DNA of 64,000 bases from Marsupella aquatica (Eukaryota; Plantae; Marchantiophyta). Below the pieces are notes generated by a model. That model searched no databases, was not told the origin of the DNA, and saw only the letters and a program-made list of their open reading frames with translations. Both the position numbers and the translations under genes were made by a program. Shown here piece by piece: positions 7,062 to 55,659 of the stretch. Every line of letters begins with the position of its first letter. Within the stretch, counting starts at the first letter, position 1. The DNA is taken from positions 14,476,645 through 14,540,644 of the forward strand of contig OZ316893.1 in NCBI GenBank assembly GCA_973895155.1, given 5' to 3'.

Positions 7062-7950
7062 CTGTATGTATATTTAATTATATAAGGGAGAATGCAAGGG
7101 CAAGTGAAAAATGAGGTACTCTGGTTAGAGAAGAAACAAAGCCAACGTAGAATTTGTTTCCAAGTGTAGATTATAGGTTGAAGGTATGACATTGCATGCG
7201 GGTGATGGTTCTGGGGTTCTGCATAGAGTGTTGCTCCATGTTAGCCATCCCCTTCACTTGACTCACTTTGGGGGGGGGGCGGGAAGCGGCAGGTATTGCA
7301 TTGCATGTCATCATTGGTGGTGGTGATTGTGGGTAGAGGGCGTCAGGCCCTGTTCCATGTTGGTCACCTCCTTCCCTTAACCCCAAAATGTGGTGTTATG
7401 GCATGGGCTTGGTGCCCACTCAGGGATGGCCCATTTCAGAGGGGATTATTTAGCCTGCAAATTTAAACAGCTTAGATCTCATCTGATGACCAGGGTGAAT
7501 TTATGTGGGGGTAAGGGCAAGATAAGAATCGCACATGGAAAATTAAGGGCCAGAGTCTAAATGGGCCCAGGTCCAAATAATGGGGCACAATGACAAGGTG
7601 TGTGTGGGCTTGTCTTGAGGCTCGTGTCCTAGTGCACTTGCTCAGGATTGTGGTTTTCCAAATCTAAGCCCGCCCAATAAAGGTTATCACATTCTCACTT
7701 ACAGATTGGTGTCCAAACTGCATGTTGGTCATTGTGGAGTGGGTGTCAGGTGTTTGGAAAGGAATGTTTGTTCCAGGTTGCAATAGGGCATCTCAAACCT
7801 GTTGTTCCCATTTTTTGGTCAGTTGCTGCAAAAATACCCATCCACTATTGTGACCAAAACCCAAATTTCAGTAAAACTTTGCCCAGGGGAGTTTTTGGCT
7901 GAGATGGGTCAAAACAACACCCGCCAAAGGTTAACTCAAAAAAACATTTA

Positions 7951-18142: not shown

Positions 18143-19168
18143 CTAATGATCAAGACAAAACTCATTTGAACAAGAAAGTCTGCTTCCTGATTTATCATAG
18201 CGGATGTCACGGTTGCAAGTATCTCTCGCATGGTGGTTCTTAAACTTATTGGTGATATCCCTAGTTCTGAGAACTTTCCAAATAAAATGCCTTCTATTTT
18301 GTGTATGAGGACCAGAATAGTTGTCTCCAAGTATTACGTTTGCAGTTTCTTCGATCTCATCCGTGGTCCACGTCTCCAGTGGTGGGTAGTGCTGCACCTC
18401 GTTCTTTCCGTCCCAAGGAATCTCTTTAGGAGTCACATCCAAGATGGTTCCAAACTCCCTATGGATACAACGACAATCTCCCCACTTCTATTCCAAAAGA
18501 GCATAGATGGCAGCATGATCCTCCTTGCTTGTTAATAAATTGAAAACAGACCACTTTGGATTGTTGACAGTGATATAATGTCGAACGCAGTAAGCCTTTC
18601 TCAATTTGCAAAGATACGGCCATAATATCTCGGGCAAAAAAGTGTCATTTGAAGCTGTGTGAGTAAATGGATTTGGAAACAATGCCTTCAATGGAGAATC
18701 ATCAATAAGCACTGTATTAGAAACATCATATTTTTCTGGAAAACGGTCCCAAATGGTTTGCAAATTCTTCAGAAGTAAATTGGCCTTCCCATCTGTTATA
18801 TCTGGCCTTTGGATGCAACTATCAAAGGTATCTTCTTGAGTAAAGACAAACTTGAACTTCTGTCGCTCCTTCTCAGTGAAAATCAACTCCATTAAGTCCA
18901 TTGTTTTTGGCCTCCTTGCACAGGTCCAAATTGCGACGTCAAAAACCATGAAAGCTGCATATAGAAATTCGTGGAGGTATGGGCGCTCCACATACATGAA
19001 ATTAAACCCTCAACGTCTCCCCCAGTGCACACCACGTAAACTTGTTTGATTTCGCCATGGTCCTGAGCTTCTGGTCTTAATGCAATCCCAACAAATCTTG
19101 TTAAGGTCAAGAACCAAGAGCTTTCGCCGGATCGGAGAGTGTAGTATTGGAGTGAATTCTGGAAACAT
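18143..19168 (-). pseudogene. FCP1/NIF (HAD-family CTD-phosphatase-like) protein with two premature stops
   Basis: One frame from the ATG at 19168: RKLLVLDLNK...ERPYLHEFL...FDVAIWT...KNLQTIW...NTVLIDDSPLKA. Stops at 19010-19012 and 18488-18490; the frame continues to 18143. The DxDxT motif reads DLNKI. Confidence 0.8.
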
Positions 19169-20737: not shown

Positions 20738-23700
20738 TTGCACTAGTAGAAACCGGGGCAATTTAGACCAAACCTTATAGGACTAAGGCCACTAAGTCCT
20801 TTTTTACAACTTCAAATGACTCGGAACCATTGCACCGGTTCACATGAACACTACAAAAGACTTTGAGTGCTTTTTGGTTTAGGATAAGACTATGAAAAGT
20901 TTCCACGTACCCTACTTTGTGAAAGGGTGAACACTCTCGCACATGAGTGTTGTAGGGTTTAGTTGTGGGCCTCAATTTGATAATGGGCATATGGGGGGTT
21001 TACGTCCGCTATATTGAACACGTACAAACTCACTACATGTCTAAATGCCCTAATGTCTCATATACTCCATAGTGGGTTTAGGGGGGGTTTACGTCTCAAG
21101 GGTGGGCCGGTTATATGTGAAGGGTGTGGGTGGTCACCACTAAAGGGGGTTTAGTAGGGTTTATATGTCAAGGGTGGGCCGGTTAGGTCTCAAGGGGGTG
21201 GGGGTCACCAACATCCCGTTCTATTCAAGTTTGCCAAGCCAAGAACCGGGTGCACACATACCCAAGATTTTTGGGCTAGCATGATTTTCAATTCACAGCC
21301 GGCTCTACTTCACCAACATCCGGCTTTATTGAACTTTTCCAAGCCAAGAAAAATTTGCTGAAATACCCAAGATGGCCATGCAGTAACACTTCAATGTAGT
21401 GGTGTCTCACTTTGGGTGACACTCAACGGCTCACTCAAACGGTAAGGTTGAGTGGCTCCCCTTAATGACTTAAGTCCCCTAATCTAGTAAAGAGGCACTA
21501 AACTGGTCTTTGGGAGTGACTTTGGAGTGTTTGGGCCATCGTCATTGGACGCAAAACGTGAGGGGTCCAAGGTTCGGGGTTTTACGTTGGATTTAGGTTT
21601 TGGCTGTAGGGCTAAGAAGGTTGTGGCTGCTGCAACCTTCGATCGGAGCTAGTTGTGAGGGCTTCATTCTTCGGGGATTTTTGAGAGAAGGGCCTCTCAT
21701 TGTTGCACAATTCTCCTGACCCGCACTGCCGATGTGTTGTGGCTGCACCCAGAGCGACTTGGTGTTGCCATTTGTTTCAAGAAGGTTGTGCTACCATCGC
21801 GAGCTGTTGAGGAGAGGGCCAGTTGCTTGCAAAAGGATTTGTAGATTGTGTCGGAGGTCTAGATTTCTCCATTTCTACCAAGAAACGACGTGCAACAAGG
21901 CAATGTGGAGCGCAACGGCAATGTCCAGGGTAGTCCTGAGTGCTTAGGTCATTCCATTCCTTATGAGAAATGTCGTGCGGCAGGGCAATGTGCAGTGCAA
22001 CGGCAACAATGTCGAGGGCACTCCTTAGTGCTTAGGTTTTCAGTGAGTTGCAGTTCGAGAGGAGCTATGATCTGGGGACTGAGGCGCTGAGGGTTTAGCT
22101 GAGGGGAGGAGCTGTGATCTGGGAAGGTGTTGCGGTGCCAAGGTCTATTGTAAGGTGAGGTGATTGTTGCGGAAGTTTAACTGTAGTGGGTCCTTAAGGT
22201 CGCGGAGGCATTCAAAGGAGGCGTGAGTAGGGCGGCAATCGTTTGTTGCTGCGGAAGGAGGACATTGGAGTTGTGAAGGCGCTGTGGAAGGCGACCACTG
22301 CGGAAGGTGGACTGCAGTGGGTCCTTAAAGCTTGCGGAGGCATTGAAAGGAGGCTGAGCAGGGAGGCAATCGTTGCTGCTGCGGAAGGTGGACATTGGAG
22401 TTGTGAAGGAGGTCGTGGAGCTTAAAGAGCAGTTGCAAAATCGGGAGCCGGTTGTTTGTTAGGAGGAAGCAGTTGATAGTGCTGCCATTGGTTATCAGTG
22501 TCATCAGCCAAAGGTTAGTCCCGGCCATGCAGCTGAAAGTGCGCTTCTTTCATCCCTTTTCCAGCAACTTTAGTTCCACATTGTTTTGTTGGGTTGTCTG
22601 TTGAATACTTTCATTGCCTCTACAGGCTGAAGGTTACTATAGGCCCTGGCTTGCGCACCCACTCCTTACACTCATGCCCAAAAACCAAACAACAAGTAGC
22701 AGAGCTCAAGCAGATCCGCTCCGCTCTGTTCTCAGCTGGCTGCGTAGTAGCTACATCTCCTCTGGTCCATCCTATTTTGAGCAATGTCATACCTCCATAG
22801 CATACAGCTTGCCTGATTGAATGGTACATTAGGTTCAGCACATTCTCCCTATGGCTGAAGAGTTATGGAAAACCCCAACACAATGAAATTCGTTATGATT
22901 TGTCTTGGCAGTCGAAGCTGCTGAAATTGCCGATTCTGATTGGATTCGGTAGGAATTCAGAATTTGTTGAGTTTGTTTGTCGCTGGATATGAGTTATTCA
23001 AGACTCCATGATTTGAGAGAAGCCATTTAGCATCCCTTGTAGATCCTGGTACCATCTGACATTGTGAGGGCTCGAAAGCCTCAAGTGACCGGGCCATCGT
23101 TGTATGCAAATTTTTGTTGTTGTATTCATGTACATCCCTGCTTGGATGAGGCGTGGTGTTGCTTGTAATCATGTATTTCTTCACACTAGAAAAGCAGTCT
23201 GTCATATGAGGTTGTCGGGATTGTCTTCCGGTCAGTCATCTTACATCTTTGTGTTGTTTTGCGTTTCAGTGAAGGGCACTAGCAAGTAGCAAGAGCAGCG
23301 AGCTGGTGATTTGCACCTTAGGCTTGGGCTACGGAGGGAGTTGCTGCAGCACCACGACAGAGAACGAAAGCACGGGTAACATTACCACTATAATTGTTGA
23401 AGAAAATACCTTTACCTGCTGCCATTTAAGCCGAGTGCACCGCCTTAAGTTTAAAGATCCCGTTGCTGGTAAGACATCATGGCTACATTGCTTTTCGATG
23501 TTGTCCTCTGTCCTTTTGTGGGATTCAGCCTGAGCTAGCTGAATCCAATCCAGGAGTTGTTGCGCTAAGGTGAGACTTTGAGTTTAGGGTTGCTTGAGTG
23601 TCCGAGTAGGTTTTCTCTTTGCGTGGGCAGCTAGAAGGTAAGCTCGGGGGCTTTACAAAGGGTTAGTGTTGCGGACTTTCCCTCCTGGACGTTGTGTGTC

Positions 23701-25596: not shown

Positions 25597-26046
25597 ATGG
25601 TGAGGACCCGCAACGCTGAACATGTGCGGCTTGCACGCAAGGCAGAGATGTTGCGCCTTGAGTATGTCAGACTTGGGATCCTTCCAGCCCAGTCTGCATG
25701 GTACTTTGAGTACCCAGTTGTTGCCAGGAACAACTACAGTCGGCCTGTACCTGCTTCTCCACCCTTCTCAACATCCTTGGTATTTCTGTCTCTAGTACAT
25801 GACCCGCCACAAATTAGGGCCCAAGGGTGTGTGCACAGTTGCCAATATGACTGTCCTGCCTATAGGGCTTCTGGCCTAGAGTTGGATGACCGTTCTCTTG
25901 GATGTCGGTTTTTTCACAGAGCACAATGTATCATCTGGAACCACTCGCCATCCTGCAGTGTGCCTGGCGATGTCACTTGTCCTGCCCTCCCAGACCCCAC
26001 CACCGGTCACTTTGGTGTCTACACATGTTTGGATCACACGCTCTAG
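25597..26046 (+). CDS. Hypothetical Cys/His-rich protein (possible CACTA cargo)
   Basis: About 149-aa ORF (MVRTRNAEHVRLARK...) with a Cys/His-rich C-terminal half. Same strand as the adjacent cargo ORFs. No family recognised. Confidence 0.35.
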   Translation: MVRTRNAEHVRLARKAEMLRLEYVRLGILPAQSAWYFEYPVVARNNYSRPVPASPPFSTSLVFLSLVHDPPQIRAQGCVHSCQYDCPAYRASGLELDDRSLGCRFFHRAQCIIWNHSPSCSVPGDVTCPALPDPTTGHFGVYTCLDHTL

Positions 26047-26715
26047 AGGACCACTTGTCACACCGCATGCACAAACCAGAGACCATTGACCTATAACTTA
26101 ACACTTTGACTTGAACAGAGAGGATATTTACTTAAGATTTTGAATTATGACCAATTTTGGGTCCAGGGTTTAGGGTCAACAGTACATAACTTATCCTATT
26201 ATGGCTGCACTAAGTACAATATCCTAATTTAAGAGGCTAGCAAGCTCACTTAAAAGTCTCCTTTCAAAGATTGGAATTAATGGGCCATGTGATAACCTGG
26301 AAAAAGTGATTTCTGCCTAACTTATTTGTCTCATTCACTATCATAGCCTATTTAGGATGTATAAATTACAACCCTGATCACAGTGCTTGATACCAATCCT
26401 GTTCAAAAAATGCCTGTTTTACATGTCACGACTGTTATATGTGATTCAAATGCATTAAATCTTGTTGCAGATCTCCTTTGGTGAATCATAGCCACAAAAT
26501 TGAGGTGTAGGTGGAGCTATTGTACGAGGGGATCAGTTTTTAGTGTGGGCTCAACAAACCAAAAAGTATGTCTACTCTGCACATGTGTGTGAACATTTCA
26601 TTGCAGTAGCAATTGCCACTCTAGTCTATATGCTACACTGTACTTTTTGTACACTGCACTAAATTGTATTGTCTGTGCACTCTGCTAAATTGTACTATCT
26701 ATCTCATGCGTAGGC

Positions 26716-27396
26716 ATGGCACGCCCTAAAATCCGAGCCAAGAAGCGGGGGACAGAGGTGAGCAACACAGGTGTAGTTGGGCCAGATGGTAGTAACTTCT
26801 CCGCAAGTCAGATTTTCCAGAAGGCAGCTCATTGTTGTGCCATTTGTGACGATGGTGGTGGCTTAGCCATATGTGAGGGCCCTTGCATGAGGCATTTCCA
26901 CCTCAACCCGGAGTCTGACCTTGCTGCAGAAAACAACTGTCCAGGGGTGGGCCTCCCGTCAACACACCAGGGAGGCTGGATGTGCACTGATTGTTTGGAG
27001 AAGCAGGCTAAGTGTGCACAGTGTGGGAAGTTGGGGTCTTATGAGGGCTCTGTTGATGCTCCACCACTTGTTAGGAAATGCCCTGACAGATATTGTGTGA
27101 GGTTCTTTTGTTTTTCATGTTTGTCCGATCTTGCCACAGCTTGCCCACTTCATAAGTGCAAGGCATGTGGTCAGCACGATGAAGATTTCTGGGTGGACAT
27201 AGTCCACTGTGTTAGGTGTCCCACCATGTGGCACTTTCATTGTTTGAAGGAGCGTCAAGCAGAAGGCTATGCTTGTGACAGACACATCTATGATCACTCT
27301 GCACATGGTGTTGATCGATGGATCTTCTATTGTCATCGCCATGCCATAGATCCTACTTTGCACACTCCCATGAGAGATCACATTTCTTGGCTTTGA
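26716..27396 (+). CDS. Stand-alone EDM2-type multi-PHD-finger protein, 226 aa
   Basis: CAICDDGG...CEGPCMRHFH, CxxCGKLGS, CPLHKCxxC, CxRCPxxWHxxCL and the terminal YCHRHAIDPTLHTPMRDHI closely follow the PHD cassette of plant EDM2. Basic NLS-like N-terminus. Intact and intronless. Confidence 0.88.
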   Translation: MARPKIRAKKRGTEVSNTGVVGPDGSNFSASQIFQKAAHCCAICDDGGGLAICEGPCMRHFHLNPESDLAAENNCPGVGLPSTHQGGWMCTDCLEKQAKCAQCGKLGSYEGSVDAPPLVRKCPDRYCVRFFCFSCLSDLATACPLHKCKACGQHDEDFWVDIVHCVRCPTMWHFHCLKERQAEGYACDRHIYDHSAHGVDRWIFYCHRHAIDPTLHTPMRDHISWL

Positions 27397-27994: not shown

Positions 27995-28843
27995 ATGGCC
28001 TCTAGGAAACGTACAAAGGTTGACCACCCGCCTCTGTTGGCTGGAATCAAAGCCATTTTGATTCCTGGCCACTATGGGTTCACCCAAGTGAGTTGGCCAA
28101 TCGTACAAAAACGATTCTCAGAGTTCCATGGGACTGAAGTCAAGGACATCACTCCACAGACTACACATGTTGTTGCGGGGACATGGCTGGATGTGATGAA
28201 CAAGTGGTCATGGTCCTTCATTGATTCTGCCATTACCAACCAAGGTCTAAAAGTAGTTGAAGTCTCTTGGCTGACCAATTCTGTTAAACATAGGTGTGTA
28301 CAGAGTACTGAGCAATATGAGTTGTGGGAGAGTGAGGAGGCCACTGCAGAGGCTTTGGCTGAAAAGGAAGCCTATGAAGTAGCGGCAGAGAAACCCAACT
28401 TTGCTTCTGTCCAATATGGACCTGTTGTCAACATAGGACACCATCCTATGCGTGCAGATGCTATATTGAATGAGCATGGCAAGGAGAGAAATACCATTAT
28501 GAAGGGGTTCAGTGTGGTATTTGCAGAAGAAGGAATTGGGGAGACTAAGTGCAGACTGTACAAGTCTATAGTTGTTGAGCTAGGTGGGACAGTGGAGGAG
28601 AGTCTAACAGAAACCTCCACTCATGTTGTAGGTCTGTCATACATGAAAATATGCAGAAAATTCTTTAAGACAACAGTGCGTGATTTTGTCATGAACAACA
28701 ATCTTTGGGTGCTTTCCCCTGATTGGCTTCTGGAATCAGCAACTAGAGGGAAGCGACAGAATGCTTGGGACTTTGATATTTTTGAGGCCTGGCCCTCCAA
28801 GATTCAGCGGAGATGTATGCTTAGCAAAGGTGGGAGAGAGTGA
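27995..28843 (+). CDS. Tandem BRCT-domain protein, about 282 aa
   Basis: Two repeats with THVV and W-L-x-x-S hallmarks (TTHVVAG...VEVSWLTNSV; STHVVG...LSPDWLLESA). Basic N-terminus RKRTK. Intact ORF. Confidence 0.85.
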   Translation: MASRKRTKVDHPPLLAGIKAILIPGHYGFTQVSWPIVQKRFSEFHGTEVKDITPQTTHVVAGTWLDVMNKWSWSFIDSAITNQGLKVVEVSWLTNSVKHRCVQSTEQYELWESEEATAEALAEKEAYEVAAEKPNFASVQYGPVVNIGHHPMRADAILNEHGKERNTIMKGFSVVFAEEGIGETKCRLYKSIVVELGGTVEESLTETSTHVVGLSYMKICRKFFKTTVRDFVMNNNLWVLSPDWLLESATRGKRQNAWDFDIFEAWPSKIQRRCMLSKGGRE

Positions 28844-29531
28844 GGAGTAGGAGTCCCTCATATTTTTGTATAAATCACAATTTTGTAATAAATGTGATCC
28901 TTGAACTAACTCATCTTGTCATGGTTGGTCGCAGTTGAAGTGATTGTTGTTTCCTGCTGCGTGGGGTGTGACTGTGAATCTACTTGCTGGGCTCTGTTTG
29001 GCTGAAGACTTTGGTGGGTATGCTGCCTCTTCCAGACCGTCAGGCCCTATGTAGGGTCCTCCTACGGGTTGCATCGTGCATGGCTACTGCTTGGGCTTAC
29101 TTGTGTGGATTGGTAACCAGACAGAGTGTAGCTCCATCCGAGATAATGCCTACAGACCTTGGATGTGTTGTGAATGCTGTGGTGAATGAGGATGCACAGT
29201 CGGAAGAGGACATTTACTTTTCAGCAGATGAGTTAGACAAGCACGATGCTGTAGGTGGTTCCTTGTTGCCTGATTTGGCAGATGATATAGTTCTTACACA
29301 TGTCTGGCCGAGGGTTCTTGTGGTGTCTGGCGCACAAGATATCTGAAAATATAGACTAATTAGTACCCAGTGGAGGGACTTGGTAGCAACATGTGCACCA
29401 TGGAGGGCACTGCTGCCACTGCTTGTAGGCACGGATCGAAGACCACCATGGCATGAGCAGGGTTTAGACCTTGATGACTTAATGTACATGCCTGAGTACC
29501 TCAGGGCTGAGTGGCATCGACAACAGGATTG

Positions 29532-32500
29532 TGTGGGATGGCTCAGTGTCAGCTAGTGTAGAGAAACATGACATTCTTTCGTTTAGAAGAGGAAATAGTT
29601 AGGGAAAAAGTTTTAGTGCTATCAGAGTAGCTAGGTTTAGGGCACTTAAGTAAGAAGGGAAGCTTAGTAGAGGTAAGAGGGAATTTAGTTATGCAAAGTT
29701 ATCTAGGGGTAAGCAAGTTACTATAGGAGGGGCAGGAAACTAGTCCGTCCTTAGTTATAATAGGCGACTAAGTCGGGACCGAAAAATGACCCGACACCGG
29801 ACATCTTATTTTTGGCTGATATTTCTCCCATGGGTGCTGGGAGGTCCCTAGGGAACCCTGAAAAAGTATGAAGTCAAGTGGGGTCTTAACCTAGGAGTTA
29901 TAAGTATTTTGGCAAAAATCAAAGTTACCAAATAGCGGGTCCCGGGAAAAATAGCTGATGGGTAAATGTAGGGGTTCCAAGTTTGGAAGTGGGTTAAGTA
30001 TGGTCCCCTCTATCCCTAGAAACTTGTGGGACAACTTTGTCACACTTGGTTACTTTTTGGGAGCATCTCAAAGTTGAGAAGAATTTTGGAAGACATAAAG
30101 ACTTGACCCTCTTTGCCTAATTTTAGAAAAGTTGTTATAGGGTTTTGTTTATATCTTAGTAAACCCGGACATAGTCCTATGTCCATAGAATCAGTGGAGC
30201 TACTCAGAAGTCCTTTTGGACTTATGTGTGAGTTTTGGAGGGGGGTCCAAAATCGCCCCAAAATGCTGTTTTTCCAAAAAAAAATGTATTTTTTTCTAAG
30301 TGTAAACCGCGTGGGCGACGATCACGCGGCGAGCACGAGGCAAGGAGGAGCGAGCACGAGGCAAGGAGGAGCAAGCACGAGGCTGGTGAGGACGTCAAGC
30401 ACCGGGAGGCTGTCCAAAGGTGCTGCATGATTACTTGAGGAATCAATTGAGCACAAGGGCGGCTGAATTGAAGGAAGGGCGGCTGAATTGAAATGGCTGC
30501 TGCTGATTGAAGAAGCTATGGCTGCTGAGAAGGAAAAGAGCTATGGCTGCAAATTAGGATCGCTGCTGGCTTTGAATTGGGAAGGCTGCTTGCTGCTATG
30601 ACAGCTGCACACTAGATTAGAGGTGCTCCTACTAATCAGGCACGAGATGCTCATGAGAATTGGCTGGCTGCTGCCTTGATGCTGCTGAATTGAATGATGC
30701 TGCTGCTAGCTGCGAAATTGCAAAGGTGGGCAGCTACGAAATTGAGAAGAGAGACCTGCTTGACTGAGAAGGAATCAAGCTATGGTTGCTGCTGCTGTGC
30801 TTCAAATCTGCTGTTGTTGTGCTGTAAATGCGCTGATGTGACTGTGCTGCTAGCTGCGAAATTGACTGTGTTGCTAGCGGCAAAATTGAAGAGGTGGGCT
30901 AGCTGCGAAATTGACTAGTCTGGCTGTGAGCTATGGTGGCTGTGAAATTGAGGGGCTGGCGGCTGATCAGCTGGACTGCTGCACAAGAAAGAATCCAATA
31001 GAGAATGCTGTGGTTTTAGATTGAATTCACGAGAGAGAAATGGCTGCAAACATTGCTGTCCTTACAATTTCTTCATAAGAAACATGAGTATAATGAGAGT
31101 GCTCTCCCCTCATGACACGTGGAATCCCCATAAGGGGCATGTAAGGTAAGTGTAATCGGGCCGCCGCTTACACCCGCTTTACACCAAAAACAGGCCTTGG
31201 GAGAATGGGCATAACTTTGGCTAGAGGTATCCGTTGGGGCCCAAATTTTTTTGTGCTGAGTTAGGGGAAGATAAGGCACCCCCTGGTGAAGGTGGAACCC
31301 CAGAAAAGTAATCACTCAAATATATTTTTAACCGAGGCCACGAGGGAGTCCCGACAACTTGCAAACCAAAGTCGGCATAGGGGAATGAATACCAGATTTA
31401 GGGGCTGACCTTTCTTGCACCCATACCACTTGAGTTAGGCTCTAGAGAAGGGTACTTACCTTTGGCCAAAGGTGTAAGGCCATCAAGTTAAGAAAAGTAA
31501 ATATAGGGGGTAGTTTACTTAGGGTAGTAAAGGGGTTACAAGTAAAATAAGGCCAACTTTGACTAGGCACAACTTGAGACTCACTCACTCTTTTTGCGAG
31601 CTTTCAAGTGGGTTGGTAAGCTGGTGAGGAGGACCATAAGTGGGAGTAGGTTTGGAAGTCAAAGCATACCACTCATGTGTGGCATATTCCAGGGCTTGGA
31701 AGGAGGCAAAATAGCAAGTAGTAGGGTGGGCTATGAACTATAGAGTTGGACTTTGTGTGTTAGGAGGACTTGGGGGAGGTATAGTTGGACCCCAGGTCAA
31801 GCTTGGTGTGATGTGGAAGGAGATAGTATATAAGGAGGAAGTTTTCATTTGTTAGGGACCGGGAGTCTCATCTCTTAAGTGAAATCTCTACCTTGCCAAG
31901 GTAGGGCTAAGCTTGAGAAAGGAGAGGTGGTCCATGCTTAGTGTGGAGAATGTGTAGTGAACTTTTGTTGTAAAGGTGATGCAATAAAAGGAGACTTACC
32001 AATCTTCATTGTGACCATTAAGTGTGAGTGCATTTGAAGTATATGAGAGCAAGAGAAGAGTCCATGCTATGGTATAATCTTGGTCTAAGCTTGAAGGGGA
32101 TGTGCTAGTACAAAACCAAGGCCAAGGAGGCAAGGTTAAGGTATAGCATTACTTTGAGACTTAGAGAGGATTATAGCTTGAGGGTGGAAAGTACTTTGCT
32201 TGGTGTGTGGTGTTAACAAGAAGTAAGAACAAGAGGAAGAGTCCTTAGATAGAGGAGCCTTCTCTAGGGCTCAAAGGGGATGTGTGGACCCAAACCAAGG
32301 CCAGGGGGGCAAGGTTGAGGGGTAACACTACTTTGAGGGTCTTGAGGAGACTTAAGCTTGAAGAGGAAAGTACTTTGGGTTCTTGGGTGTTTGTGTGAGA
32401 ATCTACTCTAAGGTGACAGCTTGGAGCGGAGATCCCCCTTGCTGATCCTTGGAGTAGAGGAGAGGGGAAGGGGTGAGTACAAAAGTAGTCAAGGGGACTA

Positions 32501-32668
32501 CCTCTCTAGAAGTGGAGAGTTGAAACTACTTATGTATGGAGTGATTGGACATTGTAAGCACACTTCAGAAGTTTTGTCAATCCTTTGTGACCTGGTATGA
32601 CATGGAGCAGGTATTAGGTAGTCTTTTGGGGAGAAAAGCCGCTTAAGCTCCTTGGCAAGTGTTTGACA
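29532..32668 (+). repeat. 5' LTR, 3137 bp
   Basis: TGTGGGATGG...GTTTGACA, repeated at offset 9294. Contains short internal repeats (gagcacgaggcaaggag x3 near 30330) and a diverged duplication at about 32084-32198 and 32263-32377. Confidence 0.97.
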
Positions 32669-32688
32669 TAGAGTCCCACCCTTGTTTT

Positions 32689-32706
32689 TGGCGCCGCTGC
32701 CGGGGA
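32689..32706 (+). promoter_or_regulatory. Primer-binding site, tRNA-Asp type
   Basis: TGGCGCCGCTGCCGGGGA, one mismatch from the Athila-type TGGCGCCGTTGCCGGGGA. Located 20 nt downstream of the LTR end. Confidence 0.85.
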
Positions 32707-32812
32707 CAACTCTTTACAGTTTTTGTTGGAGTGGAGCCACAAGACTTGGAGGTGTGTTTGCAGGTTTGCTGTTCAAGAGAAGAAGGGAGATAAGAAGGTG
32801 ATTGTGAGTGGC

Positions 32813-35800
32813 ATGCCCACTACAAGGAGTCAAGCACTAAAAGAAGCCTCTCTTAGTTTCAACTTTGGTGACCAGTTGGAGCAACCAGATTGGGTGGACA
32901 TTCATTTGCAAGCTGAAGCGGAACCTGGTGTAGGGTGGAGTGATACATCTTCTTCCACTACCAACACAAGTGAAGATCAAGAAGCAGCCATGGTGGTGAC
33001 TCAAAGAGCAAGATTTCAGTACAAGACATTCCATGGCAAGCCCAAGGAGGATCCTGATGCTTGGTTGGAGGACTTCATTGGGACAGCCCAAGCCAATGGA
33101 GAGTTTGATATTAAGTTGACCACTTTGGCGGGGGTCTTGAGAGGAGAAGCAAGACCTTGGTTCAATAGCCTATCAAATGCCATCAAGAATGATTGGGATG
33201 CCTTCAAGCTAGCATTCTTGCAGGAGTTTAGGAAGGTGGGAGAAGAATCGGAAGCTCTGATCAAGATGGGAGAGATCAGAATGGGATCCAAGGAGTCAGT
33301 AAGGAGGTTTCTGCAAAGGTTTCAAAGGTTAGCTACCAAGCTTGACCCCAGACCAGTAGACTCCATGTTGTTGGCTTGGTTTGTGGCAAGCCTACCCAGG
33401 AAGATGGGTGTCTCAGTAAGGCAATCTCACCCTAATACGTTGGATGAGGCCATTGAGGCGGCTCAGTCTTATAGGAGTGCTGAGATCTCTAGTTCCAAGA
33501 GTAGGAGAAAGAAGAAGCGATTTGCTTATAGTGATTCTTCTTCTAGCTCAAGTGAATCAAGTAGTTCAGTTGAGGATACTTCTGAGTCGGAATCTGAGGA
33601 GAGTAGTTCCAGTTCTGATTCAGAATCTGATTCTGAGGAGGACTCCGAGAAGAAGAAGAAGAAGAAGAAGGCAAAGAGAAAAAGCGACCAGAAGAGGAGA
33701 GCCAGCAAGAAGAAGCCAGGTGGTAAGCACCACAAATCTGCAACCTTCAACTTGGTGGAAGGTTCTACACCAGCAACCAAGGAGAAGAAGGTGATGGATA
33801 ACAAGATGAGTGAGATCACCAACCAACTCAAGGCCCTATCAGTTCACTTTGCTGGTGTGCAACCTGATAGGAGAAAAGTGCCGGTGAATAGAGCCCATGT
33901 ATGGTGTGTCAAGTGCAAGAGTTTTGGCCATACACCTCAAGAGTGTCAAGGTTGGAGGAATCAAGTTCAGTATGTCAATGAAGAGTCCAACGATGTTTAT
34001 CAAGCAAGTGAAGTGGTGGACTACTTCTATGAAGAAGCCCCGGAGATGGTGTACCAGATTTCAGGAGGCCCAAGAACTTTGCAAGGAAGACCAGCTCCAC
34101 CCATGGCACCTCAACTGATGCCTGGTCTTCAACCAAGGATGGTGGATCAAATGGGACCTCAAGGACCTGGGGGAGTGGCAAGAACTACCGTGGTGATCTG
34201 CTGGAACTGTCAAAAACCAGGGCACTATTCCAACAGTTGCCCCGAACCAAGGAGGCAGGGACAAGGAGCTCCCTATCCTCTTTGTGCTGTGTGCAAAAGG
34301 GAGGGTCATACCACAGCCAACTGTCCTATTGGATCTGCTGCCAAGATGATGATAGGAAGGATAGAAGCACCACCACCAGCGGTTGCCAAGGCTCCCGGTG
34401 AAGCCACAGTGAACTTCTTGAGTATGGAGTGGCAAGAGGAGGCCAAAGATGGAGTGACACAAGTTGCTGGTGGGGAGAACCAGCCAGATCTACCAGGAAT
34501 GGAGACACCTGAGGAGGAAGCTGTGTGTTACAAGGTGTCTACCAGGTCCACAAGAAAGAAGGAAAGAGTGGAAGAGAGGAAGAAGAGGAAGGAGAGAAAG
34601 GAGCACTCAACGGAGTCACCAATCGAAGTTGAAGTTGGAGCAGAAGTTCAAGTCCCACCAGCTGAAGATAGTGACTACAAGAGAGACCATCCGAAGCTCT
34701 TCTATCCCAAGGTGAATGAGGAAGTCAAGAGGCAACTAGAGGAGATGGAGGCTAAGGAGCATCAAGAGGCCATCAACAAAGACCTGAAGGTTGCTAAAGC
34801 TTTGAAGGAAAAAGCTGAGGTGGAAGAGAAGAAAGAGACCAGCAAGGTACCCTCTTATGACATCAAGAAGGATGTGAAAGATTGTTTGGTTACTGCTACA
34901 GTGGGGCAGCTGATCAAAGACAACCCTTTGTATAGGAGGCAACTGAAGGAGATGTTGGTAGGAAGGAGAAGAAGGAAGCTTCCAAAGGTTGGTACCCCAG
35001 CTGATGTGATGATGGTTTGTGAAGACCTTGGAGCACCTGAGATTGATGTTCAAGTAAATGGGTGTGTACTCTCGTATGTACCAGTTGATGGAGGCTCAGG
35101 TGTGAATATCATGATTGAGGCTACTGCCCAACAACTAGGTTTCAAGAAACTTCAGCCAACAGCAAGGACAATGAGGCTAGCAAATGGAGCAAGAGTGCTA
35201 CCGGTGGGGACTCTTACTCAAGTACCTACTCTCATTGGGGGGCAGGAGTTCTTGTTGAATTACTTGGTGATGAGACCAGCAAGGCCATCTACTTACCCAA
35301 TCTTGATTGGGAGGCCTTGGCTATATGGAGCCAAAGTAGTGTCTGATTGGGGCAAGAAGGAGTTTAGGTTTGGCAAACCAGCCACTTCAGTTTCATGGGG
35401 TCATGACAAGCATCAAGGAGAGACTACTGATGAGTTGGATGAATATGATTCTGAACTTTCCGATGAGTTGAGTACCAAATCTGAATCTGATGAGGATGAG
35501 GTATACATGTTGAACATGGTGAGCCAATGGACTGAAGAAGAAGTGTTTGGAGAGGAGCAAGAGCAGGAGGCTCTTACCAGCCATTCACCTCTGCCCAGTC
35601 TCAGTGAAGTGACCAGTCTCGAGGAGGTGAAGCAGGCTGAGACCTCGGCCAAGGAGAGCAACCAAGAAGACACTATCACAATGGCTCAGGAGGTTGATCA
35701 GACCAGCAAGGGTGCTGCCCAAGTTGAGATCAAGACAAGGAGTAATGACCAGAGTTTAAAGGCTAAGCACTTAGCCTTGTTAAAGCTCAAGATAAAGGAG

Positions 35801-38785
35801 CTAGAGGACCAATTGAAGGCTGCAAACTCAGAGGAGGATGAGACTCAGGAAGACCAGCATTCAAGCAAGGAGAAGGAGGAGTTAAGTGCTGAAAATGCAC
35901 CCGTCTATGGAGGCATGAGGTTGGCACAACTTGAGGGCACTTTTGACTCCACAATGAGGAACAAGATGGAGGTGATTCGAGCTGAGCAGTACAGAACCAT
36001 CTCTGTCCAGCAAGACAAGACCTTCAACTTGGGAAATGCCCTGGGATCAGGTGAAGAGAAAACTATCCAAGATTTGCTAGGTGAATATGTGGATGTGTTT
36101 GCTTGGAGTCACTTGGATCTTACTGGTGTAAACCCTGAACTTGGTGAGCATAGAATCGACTTGATGCTAGGAGCTTCACCTGTGAGACAAAGGCAATATC
36201 GGATGAATCCCAAGTACTCCTTGATGGTGAAGGAAGAGATAGACAAATTGCTGGAAGCAGGTTTCATCTATCCTGTGTTGAATAGTGAGTGGGTTTCTCC
36301 AATTGTCATAGTACCAAAGAAACCAGGCTTGGATGGTAAGCCTAAGATCCGAGTTTGCCAAGACTTTAGGAAACTCAATGAGGCCACTAAGAAGGACCAC
36401 TATCCCATTCCATTTACTGATATGGTACTTGATTTAGTAGCTGGTTGGGAAGTGTATAGCTTCCTAGATGGGTACTCAGGTTACAACCAGATTTGGATAA
36501 GGAAGGAGGACCAGTTGAAGACAGCCTTTACTACTGAGTGGGGGATTTATGCCTTTCGGAGGATGCCTTTTGGTCTTTGTAATGCCCCTGGTATGTTCCA
36601 AAGGTTGATGATGAATATCTTTCATGACTACTTGAGAAAGTTCTTGGAAGTATTCATAGATGACTTTGCTGTTTTTGGAAGGGGGAAGGACCATGTTGAA
36701 CATTTGAGGATGACCTTCCAAAGATGTAGGGAAGTTGGTTTGAAGCTTCACCCAGGGAAGTGCTTCTTTGGTGTGGAAGAAGGGATACTACTTGGCCACA
36801 AGGTATCCAAGAAGGGCATAGAAGTGGACCAAGAGAAGGTTGCTGTTTGGATGGCTGTCAAGTTTCCAACTTCAGTGACAGAGTTGAGGGGATTCTTGGG
36901 ATGTTTAAACTACTATAGAAGGTTCATTAAGGACTTTGCTAAAGTAGCTTTACCCCTAACCAGCATGCTTAAGAAGGGGGCTGAGGTTGAACCCTCAGTT
37001 GAGAGGCTAGCAAGTTTTCAGGAGTTGAAGAACAGGTTGGTTGAAGCCCCTATCTTGATAGCACCAGATTGGAGTAGAGAATTTCATGTGTATGTGGATG
37101 TGTCTGGCTTTTGTATTGGTGTGGTGCTTAGTCAACTTGATGACCAGAATAGGGATCACCCTATCTACTTTGCAAGTAGACTATTGGCACCAGCTGAAAA
37201 GAATTACTCACCAACCGATAGAGAAGCTCTAGGAATCATCTACTCTTGTAAGAAGTTTAGGCACTACTTGTTGGGCTATAAGGTGGTCTTTCATACTGAT
37301 CACAATGCTCTCAAGTATATGGTGAATAAACCTGATGTAACTGGTAGAGTGGCAAGGTGGATCTTGTTGCTCCAAGAGTTTGATTATGAGGTGAGGGTCA
37401 GGCCTGGTAAGAAGCATGGGAATGCAGACTTCTTCTCAAGGATTGAAGGAGAAGAGGACTTGAAGGAGGTGGATGATCAGTTTCCAGATGAAGACCTCTT
37501 TCATGTGGGAAGTGGAGGAGATACATGGTATTTGGATATCATCCAATTTCTTCTCACAACCCGGCTACCAAGAGATTTGAACCAAGAGGAGGCTGCTGTT
37601 TTCCTGAGAAAAATCAGACCTTACTTATTGGTGAAGGGTGTCCTTCACAAGGAAGGAGTTGATGGGAGACTAAGGAGGTGTTTGGAGAAGAAGGAAATCT
37701 CCATTGTGATGAGAGCTATGCATGAGGAGGAGGCTGGTGGCCATTATGCAAGTGCAACAACAGCAAGGAAAATTCTTGATGCAGGGTATTGGTGGCCAAC
37801 ACTTCATAAGGATGTAAGTCTTTTTGTGAGGGGATGTGACCCTTGCCAAAGGACAGGTAAGCCAGCTCACTCAAGGCATCACCCTCTTACCACCATCTTA
37901 CCTCTTGCACCTTTTGAGAAGTGGGGTATAGATTTCATAGGTCCCATCACTCCTGTGACCAGGTCTAGAAGGAATCGATACATCCTTCTTGCAACTGATT
38001 ATGCTACTAAGTGGGTAGAGGCAAGACCAACCAGCAAGGATAATGCTCTCACAGTAGCAAGGTTCATGTATCAACAGATTTTTACCAGATTTGGGCCACC
38101 TCTAGAGCTGGTTAGTGATAGGGGGACTCACTTCTTGAATGAAGTTGTGGAGGAGCTCACTAACCATTACTTGATTAAGCATAGGAAGACCACCCCCTAT
38201 CACCCCAAGGCCAATGGATTAACGGAGAGAGCTAATGGCATCATTGGCAAGATCTTGAACAAAACCGTGGCGGCACACAAGACTGATTGGGATGACAAAT
38301 TATACTCAGCTGTGTACTCCTACAACCTTGCTTTCAAGACCACAACCGGCCATAGTCCTTTCTACCTAGTATTTGGACAACACTCCCTTGTACCTGTTGA
38401 GTTTGAAGTGCCTACTTTGAGGGTAAGTGTGGAGGAGAGAATGGAGGCTGACCAGAGTTTAATGGAGAGAGCTTACCAGCTGGAGGAGTTGGAGGAAATC
38501 CGGGAAGAGGCAAGCAAGCAAGTGAAGAAGAAGCAAGCTCAAGTGAAGCAACATCATGACAAGAAGTTGAAGAAGCCAACTTCTTTACTTGCTGGACAAC
38601 TGGTATTACTCTATGACAGTAGGTATGCTCATTTTCCAGGCAAGTTGCATACTCGGTGGTTGGGTCCTTATGTTGTTCACCAGGTTTATGCTAATGGGTC
38701 AATTCAGCTTGCTACTCTTGAAGGAGAGGTGTTCCCTACTAGAGTGCATCATGATAGGTTGAAAAGGTACTTTAATCAGGAATAA
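32813..38785 (+). CDS. Gag-Pol polyprotein (gag, three CCHC knuckles, protease, RT, RNase H, integrase)
   Basis: Uninterrupted ORF of about 1990 aa from MPTTRSQ. Three CxxCxxxxHxxxxC motifs; VDGGSG protease; FLDGYSGY, MPFGLCNAP and FIDDF; YVDVSG RNase H; integrase HHCC with WGIDF, SDRG and NGLTER; C-terminal GPY. Gypsy domain order. Confidence 0.98.
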   Translation: MPTTRSQALKEASLSFNFGDQLEQPDWVDIHLQAEAEPGVGWSDTSSSTTNTSEDQEAAMVVTQRARFQYKTFHGKPKEDPDAWLEDFIGTAQANGEFDIKLTTLAGVLRGEARPWFNSLSNAIKNDWDAFKLAFLQEFRKVGEESEALIKMGEIRMGSKESVRRFLQRFQRLATKLDPRPVDSMLLAWFVASLPRKMGVSVRQSHPNTLDEAIEAAQSYRSAEISSSKSRRKKKRFAYSDSSSSSSESSSSVEDTSESESEESSSSSDSESDSEEDSEKKKKKKKAKRKSDQKRRASKKKPGGKHHKSATFNLVEGSTPATKEKKVMDNKMSEITNQLKALSVHFAGVQPDRRKVPVNRAHVWCVKCKSFGHTPQECQGWRNQVQYVNEESNDVYQASEVVDYFYEEAPEMVYQISGGPRTLQGRPAPPMAPQLMPGLQPRMVDQMGPQGPGGVARTTVVICWNCQKPGHYSNSCPEPRRQGQGAPYPLCAVCKREGHTTANCPIGSAAKMMIGRIEAPPPAVAKAPGEATVNFLSMEWQEEAKDGVTQVAGGENQPDLPGMETPEEEAVCYKVSTRSTRKKERVEERKKRKERKEHSTESPIEVEVGAEVQVPPAEDSDYKRDHPKLFYPKVNEEVKRQLEEMEAKEHQEAINKDLKVAKALKEKAEVEEKKETSKVPSYDIKKDVKDCLVTATVGQLIKDNPLYRRQLKEMLVGRRRRKLPKVGTPADVMMVCEDLGAPEIDVQVNGCVLSYVPVDGGSGVNIMIEATAQQLGFKKLQPTARTMRLANGARVLPVGTLTQVPTLIGGQEFLLNYLVMRPARPSTYPILIGRPWLYGAKVVSDWGKKEFRFGKPATSVSWGHDKHQGETTDELDEYDSELSDELSTKSESDEDEVYMLNMVSQWTEEEVFGEEQEQEALTSHSPLPSLSEVTSLEEVKQAETSAKESNQEDTITMAQEVDQTSKGAAQVEIKTRSNDQSLKAKHLALLKLKIKELEDQLKAANSEEDETQEDQHSSKEKEELSAENAPVYGGMRLAQLEGTFDSTMRNKMEVIRAEQYRTISVQQDKTFNLGNALGSGEEKTIQDLLGEYVDVFAWSHLDLTGVNPELGEHRIDLMLGASPVRQRQYRMNPKYSLMVKEEIDKLLEAGFIYPVLNSEWVSPIVIVPKKPGLDGKPKIRVCQDFRKLNEATKKDHYPIPFTDMVLDLVAGWEVYSFLDGYSGYNQIWIRKEDQLKTAFTTEWGIYAFRRMPFGLCNAPGMFQRLMMNIFHDYLRKFLEVFIDDFAVFGRGKDHVEHLRMTFQRCREVGLKLHPGKCFFGVEEGILLGHKVSKKGIEVDQEKVAVWMAVKFPTSVTELRGFLGCLNYYRRFIKDFAKVALPLTSMLKKGAEVEPSVERLASFQELKNRLVEAPILIAPDWSREFHVYVDVSGFCIGVVLSQLDDQNRDHPIYFASRLLAPAEKNYSPTDREALGIIYSCKKFRHYLLGYKVVFHTDHNALKYMVNKPDVTGRVARWILLLQEFDYEVRVRPGKKHGNADFFSRIEGEEDLKEVDDQFPDEDLFHVGSGGDTWYLDIIQFLLTTRLPRDLNQEEAAVFLRKIRPYLLVKGVLHKEGVDGRLRRCLEKKEISIVMRAMHEEEAGGHYASATTARKILDAGYWWPTLHKDVSLFVRGCDPCQRTGKPAHSRHHPLTTILPLAPFEKWGIDFIGPITPVTRSRRNRYILLATDYATKWVEARPTSKDNALTVARFMYQQIFTRFGPPLELVSDRGTHFLNEVVEELTNHYLIKHRKTTPYHPKANGLTERANGIIGKILNKTVAAHKTDWDDKLYSAVYSYNLAFKTTTGHSPFYLVFGQHSLVPVEFEVPTLRVSVEERMEADQSLMERAYQLEELEEIREEASKQVKKKQAQVKQHHDKKLKKPTSLLAGQLVLLYDSRYAHFPGKLHTRWLGPYVVHQVYANGSIQLATLEGEVFPTRVHHDRLKRYFNQE

Positions 38786-38812
38786 GTGTGTTTGCGGGGA
38801 CGCTGCACACTT

Positions 38813-38822
38813 AAGTAGGGGG
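38813..38822 (+). promoter_or_regulatory. Polypurine tract
   Basis: AAGTAGGGGG, ending 3 nt before the 3' LTR. Confidence 0.75.
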
Positions 38823-38825
38823 CTA

Positions 38826-41800
38826 TGTGGGATGGCTCAGTGTCAGCTAGTGTAGAGAAACATGACATTCTTTCGTTTAGAAGAGGAAATAGTTAGGGAA
38901 AAAGTTTTAGTGCTATCAGAGTAGCTAGGTTTAGGGCACTTAAGTAAGAAGGGAAGCTTAGTAGAGGTAAGAGGGAATTTAGTTATGCAAAGTTATCTAG
39001 GGGTAAGCAAGTTACTATAGGAGGGGCAGGAAACTAGTCCGTCCTTAGTTATAATAGGCGACTAAGTCGGGACCGAAAAATGACCCGACACCGGACATCT
39101 TATTTTTGGCTGATATTTCTCCCATGGGTGCTGGGAGGTCCCTAGGGAACCCTGAAAAAGTATGAAGTCAAGTGGGGTCTTAACCTAGGAGTTATAAGTA
39201 TTTTGGCAAAAATCAAAGTTACCAAATAGCGGGTCCCGGGAAAAATAGCTGATGGGTAAATGTAGGGGTTCCAAGTTTGGAAGTGGGTTAAGTATGGTCC
39301 CCTCTATCCCTAGAAACTTGTGGGACAACTTTGTCACACTTGGTTACTTTTTGGGAGCATCTCAAAGTTGAGAAGAATTTTGGAAGACATAAAGACTTGA
39401 CCCTCTTTGCCTAATTTTAGAAAAGTTGTTATAGGGTTTTGTTTATATCTTAGTAAACCCGGACATAGTCCTATGTCCATAGAATCAGTGGAGCTACTCA
39501 GAAGTCCTTTTGGACTTATGTGTGAGTTTTGGAGGGGGGTCCAAAATCGCCCCAAAATGCTGTTTTTCCAAAAAAAAATGTATTTTTTTCTAAGTGTAAA
39601 CCGCGTGGGCGACGATCACGCGGCGAGCACGAGGCAAGGAGGAGCGAGCACGAGGCAAGGAGGAGCAAGCACGAGGCTGGTGAGGACGTCAAGCACCGGG
39701 AGGCTGTCCAAAGGTGCTGCATGATTACTTGAGGAATCAATTGAGCACAAGGGCGGCTGAATTGAAGGAAGGGCGGCTGAATTGAAATGGCTGCTGCTGA
39801 TTGAAGAAGCTATGGCTGCTGAGAAGGAAAAGAGCTATGGCTGCAAATTAGGATCGCTGCTGGCTTTGAATTGGGAAGGCTGCTTGCTGCTATGACAGCT
39901 GCACACTAGATTAGAGGTGCTCCTACTAATCAGGCACGAGATGCTCATGAGAATTGGCTGGCTGCTGCCTTGATGCTGCTGAATTGAATGATGCTGCTGC
40001 TAGCTGCGAAATTGCAAAGGTGGGCAGCTACGAAATTGAGAAGAGAGACCTGCTTGACTGAGAAGGAATCAAGCTATGGTTGCTGCTGCTGTGCTTCAAA
40101 TCTGCTGTTGTTGTGCTGTAAATGCGCTGATGTGACTGTGCTGCTAGCTGCGAAATTGACTGTGTTGCTAGCGGCAAAATTGAAGAGGTGGGCTAGCTGC
40201 GAAATTGACTAGTCTGGCTGTGAGCTATGGTGGCTGTGAAATTGAGGGGCTGGCGGCTGATCAGCTGGACTGCTGCACAAGAAAGAATCCAATAGAGAAT
40301 GCTGTGGTTTTAGATTGAATTCACGAGAGAGAAATGGCTGCAAACATTGCTGTCCTTACAATTTCTTCATAAGAAACATGAGTATAATGAGAGTGCTCTC
40401 CCCTCATGACACGTGGAATCCCCATAAGGGGCATGTAAGGTAAGTGTAATCGGGCCGCCGCTTACACCCGCTTTACACCAAAAACAGGCCTTGGGAGAAT
40501 GGGCATAACTTTGGCTAGAGGTATCCGTTGGGGCCCAAATTTTTTTGTGCTGAGTTAGGGGAAGATAAGGCACCCCCTGGTGAAGGTGGAACCCCAGAAA
40601 AGTAATCACTCAAATATATTTTTAACCGAGGCCACGAGGGAGTCCCGACAACTTGCAAACCAAAGTCGGCATAGGGGAATGAATACCAGATTTAGGGGCT
40701 GACCTTTCTTGCACCCATACCACTTGAGTTAGGCTCTAGAGAAGGGTACTTACCTTTGGCCAAAGGTGTAAGGCCATCAAGTTAAGAAAAGTAAATATAG
40801 GGGGTAGTTTACTTAGGGTAGTAAAGGGGTTACAAGTAAAATAAGGCCAACTTTGACTAGGCACAACTTGAGACTCACTCACTCTTTTTGCGAGCTTTCA
40901 AGTGGGTTGGTAAGCTGGTGAGGAGGACCATAAGTGGGAGTAGGTTTGGAAGTCAAAGCATACCACTCATGTGTGGCATATTCCAGGGCTTGGAAGGAGG
41001 CAAAATAGCAAGTAGTAGGGTGGGCTATGAACTATAGAGTTGGACTTTGTGTGTTAGGAGGACTTGGGGGAGGTATAGTTGGACCCCAGGTCAAGCTTGG
41101 TGTGATGTGGAAGGAGATAGTATATAAGGAGGAAGTTTTCATTTGTTAGGGACCGGGAGTCTCATCTCTTAAGTGAAATCTCTACCTTGCCAAGGTAGGG
41201 CTAAGCTTGAGAAAGGAGAGGTGGTCCATGCTTAGTGTGGAGAATGTGTAGTGAACTTTTGTTGTAAAGGTGATGCAATAAAAGGAGACTTACCAATCTT
41301 CATTGTGACCATTAAGTGTGAGTGCATTTGAAGTATATGAGAGCAAGAGAAGAGTCCATGCTATGGTATAATCTTGGTCTAAGCTTGAAGGGGATGTGCT
41401 AGTACAAAACCAAGGCCAAGGAGGCAAGGTTAAGGTATAGCATTACTTTGAGACTTAGAGAGGATTATAGCTTGAGGGTGGAAAGTACTTTGCTTGGTGT
41501 GTGGTGTTAACAAGAAGTAAGAACAAGAGGAAGAGTCCTTAGATAGAGGAGCCTTCTCTAGGGCTCAAAGGGGATGTGTGGACCCAAACCAAGGCCAGGG
41601 GGGCAAGGTTGAGGGGTAACACTACTTTGAGGGTCTTGAGGAGACTTAAGCTTGAAGAGGAAAGTACTTTGGGTTCTTGGGTGTTTGTGTGAGAATCTAC
41701 TCTAAGGTGACAGCTTGGAGCGGAGATCCCCCTTGCTGATCCTTGGAGTAGAGGAGAGGGGAAGGGGTGAGTACAAAAGTAGTCAAGGGGACTACCTCTC

Positions 41801-41963
41801 TAGAAGTGGAGAGTTGAAACTACTTATGTATGGAGTGATTGGACATTGTAAGCACACTTCAGAAGTTTTGTCAATCCTTTGTGACCCTGGTATGACATGG
41901 AGCAGGTATTAGGTAGTCTTTTGGGGAGAAAAGCCGCTTAAGCTCCTTGGCAAGTGTTTGACA
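38826..41963 (+). repeat. 3' LTR, 3138 bp
   Basis: Near-identical to the 5' LTR; the ORF-track peptides are identical in both. The only difference noticed is one extra C near 41885 (gtgaccctgg versus gtgacctgg). Confidence 0.97.
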
Positions 41964-45300: not shown

Positions 45301-46015
45301 CTTCCCACAGTTCGAGCAGTGGATTCGGGTGACAATTCGAGAGCATAGTAGACATCACCCAGATATGGAGAAGGATTTGTATCTTCTATCTGTGCCACCG
45401 CGATTGTCTATTCTGACCTACAAACGGATGAGAGCTTATGGAAATCATTATCGAGTGAGGGATGAGCAGGGTGACCATTGTGTATCATATGATTGTGGTT
45501 TGATTTCTGTGTTTGAGCAGAGAACCTCTGAAGAACAGAGGGGGTGGATGAAGATGGGTTACGTGGGGGAGTTGACCGACATTTGGGTGTTGAATTATGG
45601 TAACACAAGTGTCCCAGTGATATTGATGAAGGGATCATGGGTGAAATCAGAGTGGCAGAGACCAAGGGCCACCATGAAGCGTGATCATGATGGGTTCTTG
45701 TTGGCCAATTTTAGGTCCAGAGTACCAGAATGGTCTGAGCCTTTTGTTTTCCCTAGCCAAGTTGAACAGGCTTTCTTTGCAGATGTGGAGGAGTCACATG
45801 GCTGGAGGGTGGTATGCCATAGCCAAGCACGGAACAGGCGGATGGATGGAAGTAAAGTAGAGTTTAGTTTGGATGACCATGCTGCATTCGAGCATCCTAG
45901 TCATGAGACTGTACTTCCAACTCGGGCAGGGACTGACTACATCCCCTTAACATTGAGAGAGACATATGATGAACCTGGGAAAATGGAATATGATGAGGTT
46001 GATGATTTGCAATAG
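42315..46015 (+). CDS. CACTA TnpD-like transposase; predicted exons 42315-44105, 44241-45142 and 45256-46015
   Basis: CPCxxC transposase-associated domain, IDACPDGC, LRHFPLIPRLQRLF, GLSLDGVNPF, YNLPPW, DYPG, DVMHIEKN, MKTHDYH, WMYPMERY and EPFVFPSQVEQAFF. GT-AG introns keep the frame, so the gene appears intact. Confidence 0.93.
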
Positions 46016-55533: not shown

Positions 55534-55659
55534 AATGTATTTAGGGTTTTGAGTGATTTTACAATATTTTTTGGAGGAGAGTCCAGATTTTGAAACATGA
55601 TTGTAACATGGGGAACTTAACAATTTCTAACTTTATTTGAATACAGATAGTCCGCTATC

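Follow-up and report, generated by a model that had tools for sequence, protein, structure and literature searches.

Why should a DNA transposon of a liverwort carry a small gene that encodes little besides the PHD fingers of an EDM2-family protein? The question is raised by an intact open reading frame (ORF) of 226 amino acids on the plus strand at positions 26716-27396 of the 64-kb window, by which we mean the whole stretch of DNA analysed. The ORF runs from an ATG at 26716 to a TGA ending at 27396 with no internal stops, and was characterised by translation, Pfam and BLASTP searches, ligand alignment and an AF2 model. Target choice and persistence under silencing are known for few plant DNA transposon families. 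A 226-residue, enzyme-free reader from a host silencing-related pathway would be easy to express and assay, and would provide a direct test of histone-mark reading by a cut-and-paste element through a separate protein.

The predicted protein has a basic N-terminus (MARPK...), which we infer to be NLS-like, three EDM2-type zinc fingers (C41-C93, C100-H146 and C148-H209) and, at its end, the terminal motif of the EDM2 family. Three Pfam families of NSD/EDM2-type PHD domains match it in the order PF23011, PF22908, PF23004 (E 1e-5 to 4e-3, each match below the gathering cut-off), and in BLASTP its residues 41-225 align with residues 225-432 of Arabidopsis EDM2 (EDM2_ARATH) at 29% identity over 211 columns (E 1e-25). 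In PMC3776765, the EDM2 family is defined by atypical PHD repeats, with C4HC3 and then C4HC2H units. The ORF contains this cassette except that a finger-2 His has become Cys; the other 23 of its 24 finger ligands are the same as in EDM2. The ELP methyltransferase-like domain and N-terminal RFD that characterise an EDM2 ortholog are absent from it. A preliminary description of this locus took the ORF to consist of the PHD cassette only, and this is borne out: neither the ORF nor its short relatives were matched by profiles built on the RFD and on the methyltransferase region of EDM2, and tblastn with seven host EDM2-family proteins found no RFD or methyltransferase exon in the six frames of the 64-kb window.

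The same description had the ORF stopping exactly at the end of an EDM2-specific motif. The motif (YCxxH-x-I...TP-x-RDH-I) is present, but three more residues follow before the stop (end H222-I-S-W-L), and full EDM2 proteins continue for about 600-1100 residues beyond it. Because YCxxH...TPxRDH is found across EDM2-family proteins but had no match in five NSD-like outgroup proteins, it is a marker of the EDM2 family with its paralogs, and not of EDM2 alone.

Immediately upstream, a pyrimidine-rich tract ending in TAG (26690-26713, plus strand), two bases 5′ of the ATG, is a predicted splice acceptor; its pyrimidine content ranks 17th among 252 YAG sites. The joints listed for the public sequencing runs, which were examined as contigs, include none of the GT-AG kind. 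It is likely to be the end of a 5′-UTR intron, rather than evidence that the ORF is an exon of a longer gene, because the start 'MAR' is conserved (in 11 of the 19 related short proteins with a listed N-terminus) and other EDM2 exons are absent from the window.

That the ORF is transposon-borne, as had been proposed, is clear from its position inside a CACTA (En/Spm) element at 20741-50133 (plus strand), which measures about 17.0 kb when a nested LTR element is excluded. The element has terminal inverted repeats (TIRs) of the form CACTA...TAGTG at both ends, with 16 of 16 terminal bases matching, subterminal GACT-type repeats, and a 3-bp target duplication, TTG, at 20738-20740 and 50134-50136. 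It encodes a TnpD-type transposase at 42315-46015 (plus strand; Pfam Transposase_21, E 1e-59, with DUF4218 and DUF4216), for which removal of two predicted introns (44106-44240 and 45143-45255) leaves 1150 residues in open frame, several other splice pairs being likewise open. The TnpA expected beside TnpD in a CACTA element is represented by a TnpA-like exon at 46898-47560 (plus strand) with a weak Transposase_24 match (E 0.014-0.026), and further TnpA exons are likely to lie between 46.1 and 49.3 kb. The CACTA element is in turn inserted into another DNA transposon, again as first described: its excision in silico rejoins an outer-element frame of 775 codons (minus strand, 51236-50137 continuing into 20740-19513), and the empty site is present in contigs of two sequencing runs (X2 and X6). 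The suggestion that this nested insertion reflects targeting was set aside, as it is compatible with chance in a window of which at least about 70% is transposon, the outer element and a LINE together taking up about 46 of the 64 kb.

The PHD ORF is not the only cargo. A tandem-BRCT ORF of 282 amino acids (27995-28843, plus strand; Pfam BRCT, E 3e-13) lies 600 bp 3′ of it as a second cargo gene, with one unannotated homologue at 61% identity. Further downstream, a broken ORF with an F-box-like stretch (29146-29531, plus strand) was recognised by eye and had no Pfam match; it has a stop at 29344-29346 and is cut by the LTR element. On the 5′ side, a Cys/His-rich ORF of 149 amino acids (25597-26046, plus strand), putatively coding, lies in the most deeply covered part of the CACTA element and had no usable match in the ESM Atlas, PDB or Pfam. 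The bin 25666-25963 within it ranks first in depth across the element in runs X2, X6 and X1 and near the top in X5, and two of five variants listed for this ORF are synonymous. Depth over 25.4-29.5 kb exceeds that over 21.5-23.5 kb several- to many-fold in four of four runs, as summed contig depth, which is not copy number.

Where does the cassette come from? A word search of 107 candidates yielded five relatives of 217-245 amino acids, 38-81% identical to the ORF, each ending at the same terminal motif. An HMM built from the ORF and these five closest relatives was then compared with 1.84 billion representatives, giving 550 matches at E ≤ 0.001. Among the best 150 of these, the named matches that were looked up belong to the EDM2 family and come from angiosperms, liverworts, a moss and a fern, in line with the original assignment to EDM2 rather than to unrelated PHD proteins. 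The search also added about a dozen more short proteins of the ORF's kind, hereafter minis; those looked up are unnamed or 'hypothetical' and come from Logan, JGI and ENA contigs. A word search among longer proteins gave one match in 3562 candidates, an NSD-like protein of Mesostigma. None of the 11 loci from 221 pattern matches in metagenomes belongs to the mini clade (L001-L008 are angiosperm-like EDM2-family loci and L009-L011 weak PHD matches), and a viral scan found no mini-type locus in 42. A single prokaryote match (1 of 20, E 3e-4) was judged to be due to chance. The longest contigs of the relatives span 1.0-13 kb, and the location in a transposon is known for the family in this window only.

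Phylogenetic trees were built with EDM2 and NSD-type PHD proteins, as called for at the outset. In them the unannotated PHD-only proteins, the ORF included, form one monophyletic clade with identities of 36-81% within it. Its support is SH-aLRT 91 in a 67-row tree with 14 minis, 100/98 in a 38-row tree with 11 minis, from which 29 short, long-branch or redundant rows had been dropped, and 100/100 in a 24-row tree with seven. The stem branch is long in all three, at 1.0-2.5 changes per site. The placement of the clade with EDM2, by contrast, varies by tree: the minis are weakly sister to short liverwort paralogs in the 67-row tree (SH-aLRT 92, with one long-branch row) and in the 24-row tree (73/29), fall outside all EDM2 rows in the 38-row tree, and in an AU test their grouping with liverwort EDM2 is not rejected (p 0.27).

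These short paralogs are annotated host genes. Marchantia has a full EDM2 (Mp2g00350) as well as Mp1g03210, which lacks the methyltransferase and ends near the PHD motif, and short liverwort paralogs without methyltransferase are also found in Riccia (R1sor_003797) and Calypogeia. A moss short form is KC19_N034500 of Ceratodon, and PHD-only host genes include Mp4g03050 of Marchantia (280 aa) and one of the grass Eleusine (386 aa). Full-text searches listed no paper on the Marchantia paralog identifiers and no functional study of these paralogs. Across grasses, moss and liverworts, EDM2 paralogs that have the PHDs only or that are without the methyltransferase turn up repeatedly (among them L001-L004, L006, L007, P0034, P0045 and P0059). 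Most host short paralogs end 5-50 residues from the same motif as the ORF, grass proteins up to about 130. Mp4g03050 is PHD-only like the ORF and has a similar basic RPK-M-K-A-S-K stretch, and the liverwort paralogs share Trp172 and often His60 with the ORF. Unlike the ORF, the host paralogs retain a full finger 2, the His ligand and an acidic residue upstream of finger 1. Since the PHD-only architecture arose repeatedly in host genes, the novelty here is the location in a transposon and the remodelling of the fingers.

The sequences indicate that the donor is an EDM2-family gene. In this respect the label 'mini-EDM2' given to the ORF is apt as to family, but need not name EDM2 proper as the donor: best tblastn scores to the window are 111 and 87 bits for short host paralogs and 76 for EDM2, and mean identity to the minis falls from 0.353 (moss short forms) and 0.345 (liverwort short forms) through 0.344 (liverwort EDM2) and 0.328 (angiosperm EDM2) to 0.313 (NSD-like proteins). 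The donor may therefore have been either EDM2 proper or a methyltransferase-less bryophyte paralog, the paralogs being slightly closer in score.

The cassette could be a mere passenger, a gene fragment captured passively, as in Pack-CACTA elements, that does nothing for the transposon. The capture of gene fragments is common in plant DNA transposons (described for MULEs in PMC6446971), and several homologues, some of them frameshifted-looking, appear broken (P0009, P0013, P0015, P0050, P0139, P0144 and P0148). Pack-type fragments, however, have high identity to their host source and decay neutrally, and the ORF does neither: its identity to any host gene compared is about 30-35%, and the mini clade has diverged to 36% identity with frame, start and stop kept.

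Variation among copies points in the same direction. Eight public runs were examined, all as contigs; seven give cover, X7 being without, and many divergent contigs lie across the PHD ORF. Among the best-supported variants (40 of 692 and 40 of 82 rows), 38 distinct alleles fall in the ORF, 21 of them at third positions; 17 are synonymous, 21 non-synonymous and none is a stop. The resulting pN/pS is 0.34 (binomial p 8e-4 against site counts), with alleles scored singly, no correction for transition bias and the best-supported subset as the sample. H190, outside the conserved zinc ligands, is the sole Cys or His changed in the listed variants, and no indel in the ORF reaches 5% among 40 of 82 rows. 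Broken copies of the ORF are seen at two joints with deletions and in one gapped contig. The synonymous excess suggests that purifying selection acts on the copies of the PHD ORF. Passive capture is in consequence very improbable; given an old monophyletic clade and this signal of selection, the ORF is likely to be a long-kept accessory gene rather than a fresh capture, and we consider it real and probably functional.

If so, what might the protein bind? An AF2 model from 28 sequences has pLDDT 77 and pTM 0.75, with the first 25 residues disordered; an earlier model from six sequences had pLDDT 54. Its fold matches are nearly all PHD-type histone readers, mostly weak (JADE1/BRPF1 PZP, NSD PHD-C5HCH and Ehd3), and with Foldseek TM-scores of 0.15-0.29 and Z up to 5.2 they indicate finger type only. 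The matches of the PDB searches include no EDM2 structure. In an alignment with AIRE PHD1, finger 1 retains the D-x-G-G-x-L-x-x-C-D/E strand together with the Trp before the last Cys pair. In AIRE PHD1, residues of this core strand hold the N-terminus of H3. Against this conserved frame stand the changes shared by the minis. Finger 2 lacks about 20 residues, and Cys takes the place of its His ligand in 13 of 14 minis, compared with His at this position in 38 of 41 EDM2 rows and in all six short paralogs. The acidic run upstream of finger 1 in EDM2 is gone; three residues before the first Cys, D or E is found in 39 of 41 EDM2 rows and six of six short paralogs, while 11 of 12 minis that cover the site have A or P.

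EDM2 fingers bind H3K9me2 together with other marks, and EDM2 partners with ASI1 via AIPP1, according to PMC7529245, PMC7472560 and PMC9910501. For the minis, the loss of the acidic patch, the shortening of finger 2 and the exchange of a His ligand for Cys make an H3K9me2 specificity doubtful; H3 binding may be changed or lost, EDM2-like reading is uncertain, and functional identity with EDM2 appears doubtful. These alterations, together with the long stem branch and the neighbouring BRCT and F-box-like ORFs, would suit a zinc scaffold repurposed away from histone reading, which binds DNA or a protein partner, for instance as a BRCT/F-box-like module for repair or turnover. Such a scaffold would hardly have been expected to retain the finger-1 core strand and all ligands, or to match mostly histone readers in fold, and we regard it as unlikely.

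A reader without an effector domain can only compete or recruit. By competing, the protein could serve as an anti-silencing decoy: free reader molecules would sit on H3K9-methylated nucleosomes of the element's own copies and exclude host EDM2 or other silencing readers. The absence of an effector and the apparent selection on the ORF fit this proposal, and free-standing anti-silencing genes such as VANC are known from plant DNA transposons (PMC6446971 and PMC12973397). A decoy should nevertheless retain the binding surface of the host protein, and here residues invariant in EDM2 are altered; nor does the protein have any obvious means of recognising its own family by sequence, and PMC12973397 describes broad anti-silencing as uncommon in plants. 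The decoy is rather unlikely on these grounds, though less so than the scaffold.

A different role would follow the host protein more closely. EDM2 secures full-length, correctly polyadenylated host transcripts across heterochromatin, and performs this role for host genes (PMC7529245 and PMC7472560); a mimic acting in the manner of ASI1-AIPP1-EDM2 might ensure the same for the element's transcripts through its own heterochromatin. The genes of the element all lie on one strand and extend over about 24 kb, and the ATGs of the PHD, BRCT and TnpD frames are each preceded by an acceptor-like site; for such a string of genes read-through would matter. Every EDM2 domain besides the PHD cassette is missing, though, and we rate such mimicry as very improbable.

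Since the binding face has drifted from that of the host, recruitment on behalf of the element fits better than mimicry. Our preferred reading, which we put forward as a tentative possibility, is that the ORF encodes the element's own chromatin-binding adaptor, which would dock the transposition machinery on nucleosomes. The cassette would have entered an ancestral CACTA element by capture from an EDM2-family gene of a bryophyte, which may have been a paralog already without methyltransferase, and selection on the element would have maintained it. The protein would be made from a spliced transcript, enter the nucleus via its basic N-terminus and bind the tail of histone H3, probably with a specificity that departs from EDM2's. 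Because it is without an effector domain, it would work via partners, most likely docking TnpA and TnpD on nucleosomes of the element itself or of its target sites, perhaps together with the BRCT protein. Two precedents bear on this adaptor: plant TIR elements encode accessory proteins that bind to the transposases of these elements (PMC12973397), and accessory proteins of transposable elements incorporate co-opted host chromatin domains (PMC13547354). Counting against a free adaptor, the known targeting readers of transposable elements are usually fused to the transposase, as in Rehavkus (PMC6446971). The wider proposal that a bryophyte CACTA lineage anciently took and retuned an EDM2 reader, which with the BRCT gene steers the element into silenced chromatin or keeps it active there, is more doubtful than the adaptor role itself.

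How does this compare with known systems? With Arabidopsis EDM2, a member of the AAE complex with ASI1 and AIPP1, the ORF shares the whole PHD cassette and the terminal motif; it differs in lacking the RFD, acidic, methyltransferase-like (ELP) and Pro-rich regions and in being carried by a transposon. The PHD1-3 fingers of NSD1/2/3 have the same arrangement and give the best PDB sequence match (profile E 9e-11) and the best, though middling, VIA match (Z 5.2), but lack the terminal motif and form part of large SET enzymes. Chromatin-related or host-derived domains are likewise present in VANC, MURB, TnpA, EN/SPM NDX-B, ATLANTYS ASY2 and the PHD-bearing transposases of MULE and Rehavkus elements (PMC12973397, PMC13547354 and PMC6446971); compared with these, the PHD of the ORF is EDM2-type and free-standing. 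Table S6 of PMC12973397, from a survey of elements of 2-12 kb, assigns its PHD rows to MULEs (5 of 5, none to CACTA) and among its PHD and BRCT rows there is one CACTA accessory entry, an RTT107-type BRCT. Full-text searches listed no paper on a CACTA element with a free-standing PHD gene, whether EDM2-type or of another sort; a Repbase annotation is possible. Host-derived chromatin domains that transposons retain as accessory genes are a known kind, to which an EDM2-type PHD on a CACTA element is added here. If the wider proposal is true, a free-standing histone reader would be a targeting or counter-silencing factor of a DNA transposon. The minis would also offer a natural series of variants with which to map the EDM2 residues that set mark specificity.

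The remainder of the window holds several further features. The LTR element inside the CACTA element is a Ty3/Gypsy retrotransposon (29532-41963, plus strand) with LTRs at 29532-32668 and 38826-41963, a GATTG target duplication and an open gag-pol frame of 2037 codons. Between its LTRs, 3137 of 3137 aligned bases match and there is one indel; with 3.1 kb of identical LTRs it is very young, and its CpG observed/expected ratio is 0.13. The outer DNA transposon (17675-59967, no strand assigned), which we take to be Sola-like, has TIRs, a 4-bp target duplication (ACAT) and DUF7869 transposase-like ORFs. The intact ends of all three layers mark the nest as young. The 775-codon ORF of the outer element has a weak N6/N4 DNA-methylase match (E 0.0016), and a methylase-like gene in a plant DNA transposon is worth a separate look; another of its ORFs, at 18488-19009, is NIF/CTD-phosphatase-like (E 4e-10). 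Tandem arrays of 65-bp and 73-bp units with internal palindromes (53120-53706 and 55057-55640) lie between its divergent ORFs. Outside the nest, the LINE (3497-7073, minus strand) comprises endonuclease-like, RT and zf-RVT pieces that stops or frameshifts interrupt, and at the far end a GA repeat precedes a coding-like region at 63660-64000 that, judged by motif, is presumably the start of a malic-enzyme-like gene.
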